Notes: a model not told the origin generated them from the sequence alone. Positions 37,699 to 41,863 are shown, numbered from the stretch's first letter. The stretch is DNA of 44,995 nt from Deltaproteobacteria bacterium (GCA_016875475.1 VGRB01000002.1:1-44995); one strand, 5' to 3'. Program-made: numbers and translations.

Positions 37699-39111
37699 TC
37701 AGCCCGCCAGCAGCCTCGCCAGCCCGAGCGCCCCCCTCGCCAGCAGCGGGAGCGCGGACGTCCTGCGGGCCAGGGACGCGGCCCTCGCGATCACGCGGGG
37801 GCGGAGGTAGAAGCGCCGCACGAGGTCGCGGCGCGCCAGGAGCAGCCGCTCCCGCGTGAACCCGTGCGGCACGAACGACGGGTGGTGCCAGTTATAGACG
37901 TCCCAGCCTCCCTCGACCCGGCCGAACGTGTCCGCCCGGTCCCAATCGACGGTCCCGGGGTAGGGGACGAAGTGGTTCACGGTCAGGAGGTCGAGGTCGA
38001 GCCCGAGCACGAACCGCGAGGTCTCGGCCAGGGTCTCCTCGGTCTCGCCGGGCAGCCCGACCATCACGTAGCCCTTCGTCACGAGGCCCGCGCCGCGCGC
38101 CGCCGCGACCGCGCCGGCCACCCTGCCCGGCGTGGTGCGCTTGTTCACGGTCTCCAGGATCCGCTCGGACCCGCTCTCGATCCCGAACGCCACGCCCCAG
38201 CACCCGGCCTCGCGCATCAGCGCAAGCACCCCGGCATCGTGCGAGTCCACCCGGAGGTTGCAGGACCACGTCAGGCGGAAGTCGGCGCGCAGCAGCGCCT
38301 CGCAGAACGAGATCATCCACGAGCGCTTCGCCCCGAAGATGGCGTCGTCGAAGGCGACGTCGCGGATCCCGGCCCAACGGTGCAGGTCGCGGAGCAGGTC
38401 GATCGTCCACGCGACCCCGTGCTGCCGGTAGCGGCGGCCCCAGTACTCGTACGCGCAGAAGGTGCAGCGGCTCGGGCACCCGCGGGACGCGACGACGTAG
38501 GTGGACGGCAGGCTCGCGAACCCGAACGCGGACTGGCGGTACGCGGTCGCGAGCGGCGGGAGCAGCCGCCACGCCGGGTGCGGCAGCGCGTCGAGGTCCG
38601 GCAGGAACGGCCTCGCCTCCTCGACCACGATCGCGCCGCCGTCGTCGCGCCAGGCGGTGCCGCGCACGCCGGCCACGCGGTCGCCGGCTTCGATCCGACC
38701 GCACGCCTCGACCAGCGTCCGCTCGCCCTCGCCGAAAACGACCGCGTCGATCTCCGGGCAGTCCCGGAGCGTCGCCTCCGGCACGGCCGTGGGGTGCGGC
38801 CCGCCCACGAGGATCGGGATTCCGGGGGCGATGCGCCTGCACGCCCTCGCCACCGCGGCCGCCCGTCCGAACGCCACCGTGGTCGTGCCGATCCCGATCG
38901 CGTCGGGCCGGCGCTCCATGACCGCGGCCGCCGTGCCCTCGACGTCCAGCCGCAGCGCCACCGCGTCAACGACGGACGCGTGGATCCCGTTCCGCATCGC
39001 GTGCGCGGCGAGGGCTGCGAGGCCGAGAGGGGGCAGGACGGGCGCGGCCCAGGCGACCGGACCGTAGAGCGCCTCCTGCGCGACCGGCGGGTTGACGAGG
39101 ACGATCCTCAC
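37699..39111 (-). CDS. B12-binding-domain radical SAM enzyme (class B)
   Basis: 470 aa from GTG (GTGA overlap with the upstream stop). The N-terminus is a Rossmann-like B12 domain (RIVLVNPP...IGIGTTT...ILVGGPHPT). The radical SAM cluster motif is CPSRCTFC. Confidence 0.85.
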   Translation of the reverse strand: MRIVLVNPPVAQEALYGPVAWAAPVLPPLGLAALAAHAMRNGIHASVVDAVALRLDVEGTAAAVMERRPDAIGIGTTTVAFGRAAAVARACRRIAPGIPILVGGPHPTAVPEATLRDCPEIDAVVFGEGERTLVEACGRIEAGDRVAGVRGTAWRDDGGAIVVEEARPFLPDLDALPHPAWRLLPPLATAYRQSAFGFASLPSTYVVASRGCPSRCTFCAYEYWGRRYRQHGVAWTIDLLRDLHRWAGIRDVAFDDAIFGAKRSWMISFCEALLRADFRLTWSCNLRVDSHDAGVLALMREAGCWGVAFGIESGSERILETVNKRTTPGRVAGAVAAARGAGLVTKGYVMVGLPGETEETLAETSRFVLGLDLDLLTVNHFVPYPGTVDWDRADTFGRVEGGWDVYNWHHPSFVPHGFTRERLLLARRDLVRRFYLRPRVIARAASLARRTSALPLLARGALGLARLLAG

Positions 39112-39935
39112 GCCGGGCGGTCCTCCGGGCCGGCGTCCCCGGGCGCGGTCGGCTCGCCTGCCTGGGAGTCGGCGGCCGGCGCGGCAGGGGGCTCGACCGC
39201 GGGGGGCGCGGCCTCCCCGGGCGCGGGCTCTGGTGCGGGTGCGGGCTCGGGCTCGGGCGCGAGCTCGGGCGCGGGCGCGGGCTCGGGCGCAGCCGGGGGC
39301 GAGCCGACGCCGGCGGCGGGCGTCTCGCGGCGGCGGCGGGCCACCACGAACACCGCCGCGGCCACGATCGCCACGGTCAGCGCGGCGATCGCGAGCCACG
39401 CCCAAGCGGGCACCACCGGACCGGCCGCGCTCGCGGCCTCCTCGGCGACGGGGTCGTTCGTCCTGCACGCGATCCACGGGGAGTCCGTGAAGGCCGCGTC
39501 GATCGCCCGCGCCAGGTCCAGGAACGGCTTGGCGGCGGCGCCCGCGGGCGCGGTCGCGTCCAGCGAGAAGTAGCGCCCGGTCGCGGCCGCGGGCCGATCC
39601 CGGGGGCCCAGCCGGACGCGCGCCTCCGCGGTCCCGTTCGACAGCACGATCACGATGTCCGTCGCCTCGATGCCGGCGGACGCGATCGCGAAGCCCTCGG
39701 GCAGGGCGGGCTTCGCCTGCATCCAAGCCGACACGGTGGCGCCCGCCTCGGGCGGCAGGAACGCCACGCCCGGCCGGCAGTCCTCCTTCGGACGGCCGGC
39801 GGCGGCCTGCCCCCCCCCGCCCTGCGCGGTCCCGCCCGCGCCGGCTCCTCCCCCTGCCGGGGCCTGCGCCTGGGCGAGCGCGACGGTCGCCGCCAGCAGG
39901 CAGATAGCACCCATCACAGCCGAATGCGCTCTCAT
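39108..39935 (-). CDS. hypothetical single-pass membrane protein (signal peptide, ~170-aa ectodomain, TM, Pro/Glu/Ala-rich tail)
   Basis: 275 aa from ATG (cat 39933-39935) with GAGGGAGGG upstream. Signal peptide MRAHSAVMGAICLLAATVALAQA, TM WAWLAIAALTVAIVAAAVFVVA, tail PEPAPAPELAPEPEPAPAPEPAP. Confidence 0.6.
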   Translation of the reverse strand: MRAHSAVMGAICLLAATVALAQAQAPAGGGAGAGGTAQGGGGQAAAGRPKEDCRPGVAFLPPEAGATVSAWMQAKPALPEGFAIASAGIEATDIVIVLSNGTAEARVRLGPRDRPAAATGRYFSLDATAPAGAAAKPFLDLARAIDAAFTDSPWIACRTNDPVAEEAASAAGPVVPAWAWLAIAALTVAIVAAAVFVVARRRRETPAAGVGSPPAAPEPAPAPELAPEPEPAPAPEPAPGEAAPPAVEPPAAPAADSQAGEPTAPGDAGPEDRPA

Positions 39936-41863
39936 CCATCCCTCCCTCGGAGCAGAGCCTCGATGGCGGCCGACGTGGCCGGGTCGCCCTCGATGAAGAA
40001 CGGCGGGAAGCCGCGCCACGAGTAGCCCGCGCACTCCGGTGCGCCGAGCCGCCACTCAAGGTCGAGCCGCCGCGCGCCATCGCCGATGCGGGCACGCAGC
40101 CCGTCGGCGGAGACCTCGCCCACGTCCACCGCCGCCACGCGGCCGCCGCACAGGCCGCCGGAGCGGGGCATCACGATCCCGCTCGGGCCGCCCCGCGCGG
40201 GCCCGAGCGGCAGGCGCAGCGTAACGGTGCGGGCGTGGTGCCGGGACAGCCCGGGCAGGCCCGCGACGTGTACCGAGACGTCCTCCGGGTCGAGCGCGGG
40301 CTCGAGCGCGATCCCCGATTCCACGCACTCGCCCGCCCTCACGTCGCCCTCACCCGAAGGCCGGACGCACACCTCGAACCGCTCCCAGCGGGTCCGGATT
40401 GGGGTCAGGCAGAGGAGCAGGACGGCGTCGCCCGATCGGCGGAGCGTCCGGCAGCCGTCCGGCAGCGGGTCGGGCACGCGCTCCGTCCACGCCTTCAGCA
40501 CGTACGCCGCGTCGCGGTCCTCGTCCCCGGGCCGCCCCCCGGGGCTCTCCGGCGGCGCGTCCCAGGGGCTGACGACCGCGAGCGCCTCGACCAGGTCCGC
40601 AGCGTCCGGTCCCTTCACGCTCCCGACCGCGCGCGGGAGGTCCCAGCCGAGCCCGCGGAGCGCCTCCGCCACGACACCGGCGTCCGCGAACGTGAACGCA
40701 GGCCGCCCCCCCACGGAAGGCATCCCGGCCGAGGTCCCGGCCGGCAGGAACGCGACCAGGCCCGCGGCGTGGATCGTGACCAGCGTGCCCGCGACGCGGC
40801 CCGCGCGGGCCAGCGCCGGCCGAGGGTCGCCGATGCGCGCGCGCACCCGAGACCACGCCTCGGACGCGAGCGCGAGCGCGCCGATCGCGGCGGCCGCCGC
40901 GAGCGCGGGGAGCCAGGGGGCGAGGTACTTGTCGCTCGGGTCGACGAGGTCGGCGAGCCGCGCGGCCCGGTAGACCGCCAGCATCGGCGCCGACAGCACC
41001 AGCAGGGCGCCCAGTTCGCGGCGCCGCCCGGGGGCAACGGCCAGCCCCACCCCGAGGAGCGCCATGACCGCGAGCGCGGTGACCTCGACCGGGCTGCTGC
41101 CGACGCCGGGCGACGCCGCGGTTGCCCCCCCGGACGCCGGCGTCGCGCCGATCCCCGCCGCGAGCGCGGCCACGTTCCCGATCCACGCGCCCGGAGACAG
41201 CGCGAACAGGGCGGTCCCGAAGACCCCGAGCACGCCGCCCGCCAGCGCCAGCCGCCGCCGCGTCGAGGCGCCGGGCTCGACCACCGCCGCGTACGCGACG
41301 GGCAGGACGAAGAGCCCGCAGACCGGGTGCACCTCGGCCGCGATCGCCGCCACCACCGCGGACAGCCCGAGCAGCGCCGGGCGCGGCCGGCGGACGCACT
41401 CCAGGCACAGCGCGGTCAGGAGCGCCCCGAAGAAGACGTAGGTCCGCGCGTTGTAGAGGACCCCGAGGTGCAGGTCCACGCGGAGCATCGCCCACGCCAG
41501 CAGCAGCAGGGCGACCGAGGCGGCCAGCGGCCCCGCCGACCGGCTCACCGCGAGCGCGAGCAGCGCGAACCCGACCGCCGCCAGGACGTGCATCACGAAA
41601 AGGGCGGCTGCCAGGTCGAGCCCGGCGACGTGGAGGAGACCGCGAAACCCGAGCCAGGACGTGCCGACGTGAAGCGACTGGACCGACGTCGCGGGCCCGC
41701 GGAGCGGGCACCGGTCCTGCTCGACGCAGGCACGCACGTGCCGCTGGTCGTTCACCGTGTCGAGCCACAGCGCGGGCTCGGTCCCGCCCACGCGGATCAT
41801 GAGCACCATCGCGGCGACGAAGGCCACGATCGGCAGTGCCGCGGATGGGTCGGGGAAGCGCAT
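39932..41863 (-). CDS. hypothetical polytopic membrane protein (~10 TM) with a ~260-aa C-terminal soluble domain
   Basis: 643 aa from ATG (cat 41861-41863). The stop overlaps the downstream start (ATGA). The hydrophobic N-terminal two-thirds contain no motif I can name. Confidence 0.6.
   Translation of the reverse strand: MRFPDPSAALPIVAFVAAMVLMIRVGGTEPALWLDTVNDQRHVRACVEQDRCPLRGPATSVQSLHVGTSWLGFRGLLHVAGLDLAAALFVMHVLAAVGFALLALAVSRSAGPLAASVALLLLAWAMLRVDLHLGVLYNARTYVFFGALLTALCLECVRRPRPALLGLSAVVAAIAAEVHPVCGLFVLPVAYAAVVEPGASTRRRLALAGGVLGVFGTALFALSPGAWIGNVAALAAGIGATPASGGATAASPGVGSSPVEVTALAVMALLGVGLAVAPGRRRELGALLVLSAPMLAVYRAARLADLVDPSDKYLAPWLPALAAAAAIGALALASEAWSRVRARIGDPRPALARAGRVAGTLVTIHAAGLVAFLPAGTSAGMPSVGGRPAFTFADAGVVAEALRGLGWDLPRAVGSVKGPDAADLVEALAVVSPWDAPPESPGGRPGDEDRDAAYVLKAWTERVPDPLPDGCRTLRRSGDAVLLLCLTPIRTRWERFEVCVRPSGEGDVRAGECVESGIALEPALDPEDVSVHVAGLPGLSRHHARTVTLRLPLGPARGGPSGIVMPRSGGLCGGRVAAVDVGEVSADGLRARIGDGARRLDLEWRLGAPECAGYSWRGFPPFFIEGDPATSAAIEALLRGRDG

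Follow-up and report, generated by a model that had tools for sequence, protein, structure and literature searches.

A candidate Arn/Gtr-like glycosylation locus built around a two-subunit GT-C-fold membrane protein in a deltaproteobacterial contig

Gene layout of the locus

The genes considered here lie towards one end of a 44,995-bp stretch of DNA (the window) from a Deltaproteobacteria bacterium (GCA_016875475.1, VGRB01000002.1:1-44995). Three overlapping minus-strand genes encode a polytopic membrane protein with a predicted GT-C glycosyltransferase fold, a small bitopic membrane protein that is its conserved partner and a B12-dependent radical S-adenosylmethionine (SAM) enzyme, while genes for an aminotransferase and a carbamoyltransferase diverge from them. 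We propose that they belong to a periplasmic glycosylation system. The window is an entire contig (C2 of genome G000) of a fragmented genome bin comprising 721 contigs, with 89% completeness and about 73% G+C; below, G numbers denote genomes (G000 being the window's own), C numbers contigs and L numbers fetched loci. Genes for TonB and ExbD in the window point to a Gram-negative envelope, and homologues with source names are labelled Deltaproteobacteria or Myxococcota bacterium. The features are as follows.

39932-41863, minus strand: predicted GT-C-fold membrane glycosyltransferase, 643 amino acids (aa); from translation, AlphaFold2 (AF2) model, Foldseek and VIA-align
39108-39935, minus strand: bitopic partner subunit, 275 aa; from translation, a hidden Markov model (HMM) of fused extensions and BLASTP
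37699-39111, minus strand: class B radical SAM enzyme, 470 aa; PF02310 and PF04055
41864-42017, no strand: divergent intergenic region, 154 nt, G-rich; read from the sequence
42018-43256, plus strand: DegT/DnrJ/EryC1-family pyridoxal phosphate aminotransferase, 412 aa; PF01041
43267-44961, plus strand: NodU/CmcH/TobZ-family carbamoyltransferase, 564 aa; PF02543, PF16861 and PF22521
44961-44995, plus strand: start of a gene cut by the contig end, 11 codons (MGALDGIGSQV); from the sequence
37409-37624, plus strand: FmdB-type Zn-ribbon protein; PF09723, E 3e-15

The three minus-strand genes are backed by a frame plot of position-specific G+C (GC3) and by their translations. A preliminary description of the locus had reported that they overlap, and direct reading of the sequence confirms it: the start of the partner gene overlaps the GT-C stop as ATGA (39935-39932), and the radical SAM start overlaps the partner stop as GTGA (39111-39108). 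Because the genes overlap, co-translation of the GT-C protein, its partner and the B12 enzyme is indicated. The divergent region presumably holds the promoters and leaders of both operons. Its plus strand carries tandem hexamers (GGGCTC three times, GGGTTC twice) just ahead of the DegT start, and a consensus scan of the region, which is 75% G+C, found neither a sigma-70-like site nor an intrinsic terminator.

Downstream of the minus-strand operon, two small convergent plus-strand genes lie within 37091-37624, followed by a 2-oxoacid:ferredoxin oxidoreductase operon. One of the two encodes the Zn-ribbon protein. The product of the other is a small membrane protein that contains a CxxxGGC motif and resembles DUF6132, with a Pfam score below the cut-off. 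The high-GC3 frame that continues past the radical SAM stop is an antisense shadow of these small genes and not a peptide gene. Readthrough of the radical SAM gene into 37417-37698 was likewise ruled out, the frame there being the antisense shadow of the Zn-ribbon gene.

A GT-C-fold protein and its bitopic partner

The preliminary description had assigned the 643-aa protein to no known family. At the level of sequence profiles this stands: no Pfam or NCBIfam family matches at E ≤ 0.1, the protein fits none of the named Pfam GT-C family profiles (PMT/PMT_2 GT39/GT83, STT3 GT66, GT87 and others), and a profile search of the PDB returned only Pmt2, at E 0.025. The fold, in contrast, is recognisable. 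In the AF2 model, which was computed from an 89-sequence alignment (predicted local distance difference score, pLDDT, 88.9; predicted template-modelling score, pTM, 0.91), the protein has 11 membrane helices rather than the 10 originally counted, two surface helices in the first external loop and a flexible external loop at about residues 236-257. The C-terminal region (about 376-643) is modelled as periplasmic and beta-rich, with an alpha/beta part plus a beta-sandwich. All Foldseek matches in the PDB at E ≤ 0.001 are GT-C enzymes, namely AftA, STT3, PglB, AglB, EmbA/B/C, ArnT, ALG9/12 and AftD. Structural alignment with VIA-align gives Z scores of 19-20 for Pmt4 and Pmt1-Pmt2 (Pmt4: Z 20, root-mean-square deviation 4.0, 338 aligned), about 17.5 for STT3, 16.3 for AftA and EmbB and 15 for ArnT, and the nearest clusters in the ESM Atlas are RgtA/B/C/D-like and PMT_2.

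GT-C enzymes carry a catalytic acidic residue just after helix 1. In the 643-aa protein Asp35 follows helix 1, and the model places it where the first loop helix starts; all sequences of the 13-member alignment share it, as do at least 90% of the 89. Cys46, Cys52 and Tyr313, the last within a D-K-Y motif, are invariant in the 13- and 89-sequence alignments. By its modelled fold the 643-aa protein is a member of the GT-C glycosyltransferase superfamily, and, judged by sequence profiles, it represents a family that fits none of the sequence-defined GT-C families tested and carries no family name. Searched against 1.84 billion representatives, a profile of 13 homologues taken from related genomes retrieves 1,174 proteins with E ≤ 0.001, of which 254 reach E ≤ 1e-30. 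Among the genomes sampled in the phylum, some complete ones contain distant relatives within this family. The C-terminal domain also folds well alone (pLDDT 85). Its best VIA-align score, Z 5.2, is below the noise level stated for the tool. The matches are to the RetS sensor domain, to lectins and to beta-sandwiches with which GH2 enzymes bind sugars, and they hint only faintly that the acceptor is a carbohydrate.

The 275-aa protein was previously described as a single-pass protein with a PEPA-rich tail, and its translation bears this out. A signal peptide is followed by a periplasmic domain of about 120 aa, one membrane helix at about residues 176-199, an RRRR stop-transfer sequence and a cytoplasmic tail rich in Pro, Glu and Ala. 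The periplasmic domain contains the motif R-[WY]-F ... L-A-x-x-I-D-x-x-F-x-x-S-P-W. Evidence that this protein is a partner of the GT-C enzyme comes from natural fusions: 13 of the GT-C family representatives listed have lengths of about 770-845 aa, and in those inspected the GT-C body is preceded by a signal peptide, then an ectodomain, then a membrane helix. By BLASTP the 275-aa protein matches such an extension at E 1e-4 over the ectodomain and membrane helix, and a phmmer search with the same protein against the GT-C family representatives gave no match. An HMM built solely from seven N-terminal extensions of fused members of about 800 aa matches the 275-aa open reading frame (ORF) at E 1.4e-11 among 1,886 six-frame ORFs. 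The same HMM also matches the ORF immediately 3' of the GT-C homologue in 7 related loci.

In the more distant loci L017, L028 and L030 the downstream ORFs share the architecture, the motif and the membrane helix of the partner. These three served as by-eye seeds of a wider HMM, and their matches to it hold by construction; non-seed matches of the wider HMM that adjoin a GT-C gene are found at L018 and L031. Since partner ORFs lie directly downstream of GT-C genes and natural fusions provide Rosetta-stone evidence, the GT-C gene and its partner form a conserved two-gene module. On this comparative evidence from sequence, the 275-aa protein is a conserved partner of the GT-C enzyme, and in most relatives its gene directly follows that of the enzyme. 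A second GT-C/partner pair, 40% identical, is found on contig C407 (L013) of the window's own genome.

Accompanying enzymes and their co-inheritance

The DegT protein matches PF01041 at E 3e-62. It scores under every curated equivalog cut-off, with 130 bits for ArnB (cut-off 631) and 121 for DesI, and PseC and LegC are also far under theirs. The carbamoyltransferase, which starts with GTG at 43267, 10 nt past the DegT stop, has Carbam_trans_N and Carbam_trans_C domains (PF02543, PF22521, PF16861), and its score against the NodU equivalog is 123 bits versus a cut-off of 1000. The start of the gene cut by the contig end overlaps the carbamoyltransferase stop as TGATG. Its N-terminus resembles those at L055 and L056, and the 373-aa gene that follows the carbamoyltransferase at L056 and L054 encodes a protein with Radical_SAM and SPASM domains. 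Judging from its 11 residues, the cut-off gene probably encodes a SPASM-type radical SAM enzyme; the 89%-complete assembly to which the window belongs yielded no orthologue of that enzyme.

Two related arrangements were seen elsewhere. At L015:595-2742 (minus strand; G005, C70) a single 715-aa frame encodes both a carbamoyltransferase, with its C domain and part of the N domain, and a radical SAM domain of HxsC4-like type. This natural fusion links the two enzyme types, and the start call may truncate its N-terminus. At L056:9918-13946 (G007, C215) the DegT/carbamoyltransferase/SPASM operon continues into genes for a HEAT-repeat protein and the large subunit of carbamoyl-phosphate synthase, and the latter would supply the carbamoyl donor.

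The distribution of these genes was followed in 41 relatives and in 401 genomes of the phylum. Carbamoyltransferase orthologues (59-72% identity) occur in nine of the 41 relatives, and extending the search to the 401 genomes returned the same nine. The close GT-C subfamily, first detected with a single-protein search, is present in exactly these nine of the 401 genomes (profile E < 1e-178; next best 3e-58). The wide score gaps indicate that the GT-C and carbamoyltransferase orthologue groups are natural and not artefacts of a threshold. DegT orthologues (41-56% identity) are found in the same nine of the 41 relatives, and orthologues of the 373-aa SPASM enzyme (51-61% identity) in the eight of the nine other than the window's own genome. 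The nine genomes (G000, G004, G005, G007, G010, G012, G020, G021 and G034) span four families, and the set is present in 5 of the 18 sampled genomes of the window's own family. That the divergent aminotransferase and carbamoyltransferase genes belong to the same system as the minus-strand genes had been suggested from their position, and the suggestion is strengthened here, as their orthologues occur only in genomes with a close GT-C homologue.

Co-inheritance is accompanied by partial linkage. DegT adjoins the carbamoyltransferase in seven of the nine genomes and the SPASM gene in G005 and G012, while the carbamoyltransferase lies beside the GT-C/partner pair in three (the window, G005 and G012). 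Across 33 loci of the GT-C family the commonest neighbours are the carbamoyltransferase (seven loci) and a class B radical SAM gene (four). Among the loci seen, the window alone unites GT-C, partner, DegT, carbamoyltransferase and probably SPASM genes, and it alone has this B12 enzyme. A second polytopic protein of 559-708 aa (L016:9943-11745, L051:1812-3938, L052:5962-7641) is present in six of the nine system genomes and none of the 32 others, and its usual neighbours are the DegT or SPASM genes. In Pfam the copy at L016 is weakly similar to GT87 (22.6 bits, below the cut-off), and no copy was found in the window's own assembly.

The 470-aa protein has the class B architecture reported in the preliminary description, with a B12-binding domain (PF02310, residues 23-135, E 5e-21), a Radical_SAM domain (PF04055, residues 207-367, E 8e-18) and the motif CPSRCTFC (CxxxCxxC) in its translation. 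By these domains it is a class B (cobalamin-dependent) radical SAM enzyme. The earlier statement that it matches no known class B family also holds against the curated NCBIfam equivalogs: the best scores are three- to four-fold under the cut-offs (ApyD 172 bits, cut-off 750; BchE 168, 481; HpnJ 164, 578), AprD4 gives 96 (500), and PhpK, HpnR, ladderane-type and other curated class B equivalogs are likewise below theirs. Among solved structures the closest in sequence are AprD4 (6fd2, E 2e-24), 9ccb and TokK, and the best match among 5.8 billion proteins reaches 44% identity. BchE, HpnJ, Fom3 and MoeK5 have been placed in one main similarity cluster of class B enzymes (review, PMC9204698), and on the NCBIfam evidence the enzyme appears to belong in an unresolved region of that cluster. 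HpnJ/HpnP hopanoid and Tes/Grs lipid systems were considered as identities for the system and rejected, with curated scores far below cut-off and no lipid genes.

The preliminary description had treated the three minus-strand genes as a hard-wired cassette. This proved correct for two of them: only the GT-C and partner genes travel together, and no relative has an orthologue of the B12 enzyme. The condition under which that description had declared itself refuted, a cassette that is not kept as a unit, thus applies to the enzyme at its centre. Matches to the enzyme at E ≤ 1e-50 occur in 124 of the 401 phylum genomes, usually several in each, with none above 40% identity; the two best of these homologues do not adjoin GT-C genes. 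Within the fetched flanks of a GT-C gene, a class B radical SAM gene is present at four of the 33 loci (the window, L015, L019 and L037), in each case a different paralogue, with 32% identity for the copy at L015. A carbamoyltransferase gene (L048) or a DegT gene (L049) is also found beside members of the clade. The B12 enzyme belongs to a highly paralogous, uncharacterised clade and stands outside the conserved unit, most likely as a lineage-specific addition.

Some further members of this clade are recorded here. The window's own genome has a paralogue (40% identity) on contig C106 (L024), alongside two carbamoyltransferase genes. G012 contains 19 matches at E ≤ 1e-20, ten of them on C120 (about 29-93 kb) and seven on C92 (about 37-56 kb), regions that look like radical-SAM-dense islands. 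L049 (G036, C116) places the same clade in a lipid- or polyketide-like context. Its plus strand reads CotH kinase, enoyl-CoA hydratase, a type III polyketide synthase (PKS)/ketoacyl synthase (KAS) III-like gene, a second enoyl-CoA hydratase, a gene without assignment, DegT, class B radical SAM genes (two or three of them) and a smaller radical SAM gene of Fer4_12 type. The class B count reflects two full-length tblastn matches and a weak N-terminal match that overlaps the last gene.

A proposed envelope glycosylation pathway

We regard it as modestly probable that the locus encodes an Arn/Gtr-like, lipid-carrier-dependent periplasmic glycosylation system around a new two-subunit GT-C enzyme. 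Use of lipid-phosphate-linked sugars at the external face of the membrane is a hallmark of GT-C enzymes (PMC11127046). In the chemistry that we infer for this locus, the DegT aminotransferase would make an amino sugar from a keto-sugar intermediate in the cytoplasm, the SPASM radical SAM enzyme may generate the keto group or edit the sugar further, and the NodU-type enzyme would carbamoylate the sugar. In this lineage the B12 enzyme may act on the sugar, or on the form linked to lipid, in an extra radical step that is most likely a C-methylation. After this the sugar would be loaded on polyprenyl phosphate and flipped by enzymes that were not found at the locus. The GT-C enzyme, using its conserved Asp after helix 1 and acting with the bitopic partner and the beta-rich domain, would transfer it to an envelope acceptor, which might be lipopolysaccharide, another glycan or a protein.

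The co-inherited cytoplasmic enzymes belong to types that tailor sugars. DegT-family aminotransferases aminate keto sugars, and pairs of a DegT-family and a radical SAM enzyme act in the biosynthesis of 2-deoxystreptamine (BtrS/BtrN) and desosamine (DesI/DesII). NodU/TobZ enzymes carbamoylate sugars, and in moenomycin biosynthesis the carbamoyltransferase MoeM5 and the B12 radical SAM methylase MoeK5 act on one lipid-linked sugar. A more specific version of the pathway, which we offer tentatively, is that the two radical SAM enzymes, the DegT protein and the carbamoyltransferase build a carbamoylated, carbon-alkylated amino sugar, that the new two-subunit GT-C family attaches it outside the membrane, and that the system is self-contained and horizontally patchy.

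Among known systems, three-component periplasmic glycosylation offers a close architectural parallel: a GT-C enzyme described for it has 11 membrane helices and, at the C-terminus, a periplasmic module that is beta-rich (Kelly et al., 2024; PMC11127046). Three-component systems (GtrA/GtrB/Gtr-GT-C, and the pentofuranose systems with the GT136 enzyme ORF12) resemble the present one in the outward-facing GT-C enzyme, the 11 helices, the loop after helix 1, the beta-rich C-terminal module and the cytoplasmic enzymes that would prepare the sugar; for GT136 the likeness is one of architecture only. They differ in that the present loci have no linked polyprenyl-phosphate glycosyltransferase or flippase and do have a bitopic partner, which is sometimes fused, and linked aminotransferase, carbamoyltransferase and radical SAM genes. 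Nor does the GT-C protein match the Pfam GT-C families. The Arn system (PmrHFIJKLM), which serves the aminoarabinose modification of lipid A, is similar in that a DegT-family aminotransferase, whose best curated similarity here is to ArnB, is genetically paired with a GT-C enzyme, and in that the predicted product is an amino sugar on whose N or O sits a one-carbon group, which is formyl in Arn and would be carbamoyl here. Arn, in contrast, involves neither carbamoylation nor a radical SAM step, and equivalents of ArnA, ArnC, ArnD and ArnE/F are absent from the window, whose contig ends 35 nt past the carbamoyltransferase, and from the 121 neighbouring genes tallied.

By analogy of enzyme types, moenomycin biosynthesis combines a NodU-type carbamoyltransferase with a B12 radical SAM enzyme on a lipid-linked glycan sugar, MoeK5 being listed as a cobalamin radical SAM methylase (PMC9204698). 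Unlike the present system, it yields an actinomycete secondary metabolite by means of cytoplasmic GT-A/B enzymes and has no GT-C enzyme. The antibiotic clusters of BtrS/BtrN, DesI/DesII, AprD4 and TobZ share the placement of a DegT-type gene beside a radical SAM gene, with a TobZ-type carbamoyltransferase, whereas the context here is that of an envelope transferase and the scores stay below the curated models for BtrN, DesII and AprD4. In the library of papers searched we found no description of a GT-C enzyme with such a partner or of such a gene set.

Several observations weigh against a lipid-carrier-dependent system of this kind. A GT2 polyprenyl-phosphate glycosyltransferase or a GtrA/ArnEF-type flippase was not seen next to the genes at any locus inspected, and both are absent among the top families in a Pfam tally of 121 neighbours; thus, two of the three classic components are missing from view. 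The window contains no sugar-nucleotide dehydratase or synthase, and the loci inspected contain no linked dehydratase. In most genomes the GT-C/partner pair lies amid unrelated housekeeping genes. The agreement of the gene set in nine of nine genomes overstates its independence because the genomes are kin, and the link to the B12 enzyme rests on one operon because that enzyme is not co-inherited with the set. With respect to the type of acceptor, the C-terminal domain alone has no Foldseek match at E ≤ 0.001.

The same machinery might have a protein as its acceptor, the GT-C enzyme being a PMT-like O- or C-glycosyltransferase of periplasmic or outer-membrane proteins whose partner presents or selects substrates. 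We consider this unlikely. The best structural matches are indeed Pmt4 and Pmt1-Pmt2 (Z 19-20), followed by oligosaccharyltransferases (Z about 17), and the GT-C/partner pair is usually found alone, away from polysaccharide loci. Small differences in Z among GT-C families, however, track helix number more than acceptor type, neither a MIR domain nor a WWD-type motif was seen, and the weak matches of the C-terminal domain (Z 4-5) are to carbohydrate-binding beta-sandwiches (a GH2 domain, lectins and carbohydrate-binding modules) and not to peptide-binding folds. It is rather improbable that the substrate of the B12 enzyme is a lipid (a hopanoid, the polyprenyl carrier or some other lipid of the membrane) and that the locus remodels a membrane lipid which the GT-C enzyme glycosylates. 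Although HpnJ and a ladderane-type lipid enzyme are among the best curated similarities of the B12 enzyme, and at L049 a relative in its clade lies in a cluster with enoyl-CoA hydratases and a type III PKS/KAS-like gene, every curated score falls short of its cut-off by a factor of three to four, the window has no lipid-synthesis gene, and the recurrent neighbours of the clade are DegT and carbamoyltransferase genes.

The radical SAM gene might also be unrelated in function, a mobile paralogue that landed behind the GT-C/partner pair. The other eight system genomes have no orthologue, its nearest homologues are not beside GT-C genes, and the clade is very paralogous (124 of 401 genomes at E ≤ 1e-50, and up to 19 matches per genome at E ≤ 1e-20). 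Even so, the 4-nt start/stop overlap with the partner gene, the independent occurrence of class B radical SAM genes near a family member at L015, L019 and L037, and the location of the own-genome paralogue with two carbamoyltransferase genes make such an accident decidedly improbable in our view. An operon for maturation of a ribosomally synthesized peptide with post-translational modifications (RiPP), in which the B12 enzyme would modify a ribosomal peptide, we hold to be highly implausible. ApyD, a RiPP enzyme, is the top NCBIfam similarity and models of RiPP C-methyltransferases also score, but none of these scores comes near its cut-off, and the surrounding genes encode a glycosyltransferase and enzymes of sugar type. 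Furthermore, no precursor-like ORF is present: the operon is gap-free, leaving no room for a short ORF, and its sole downstream open frame is the Zn-ribbon antisense shadow. Here our results agree with the preliminary description, which had noted the lack of a peptide precursor and had favoured an envelope glycan over a RiPP; the GT-C fold of the polytopic protein points the same way. As a whole, its observation of the operon is confirmed and its interpretation is partly supported, the emphasis moving from the radical SAM enzyme, around which that account was centred, to the 643-aa GT-C protein as the most informative gene.

GT-C enzymes install envelope modifications that control resistance to antibiotics and peptides, serotype and phage susceptibility. 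The locus contributes a definition of the GT-C family and its partner together with a clean co-inheritance signal. The family, unnamed and of considerable size, comprises about 1,170 representatives at 50% identity and has an obligate small partner, and the shortlist of strictly co-inherited cytoplasmic enzymes makes a testable pathway of what had been an "unknown membrane protein". The analysis also connects sugar chemistry, in a compact setting of 5-7 genes, with members of the huge and functionally obscure radical SAM clades of class B and SPASM type. If the more specific version of the pathway is true, the system would be a new counterpart of the Arn modification of lipid A, and it would offer a first handle on the role of the very large, uncharacterised radical SAM clades associated with sugars.

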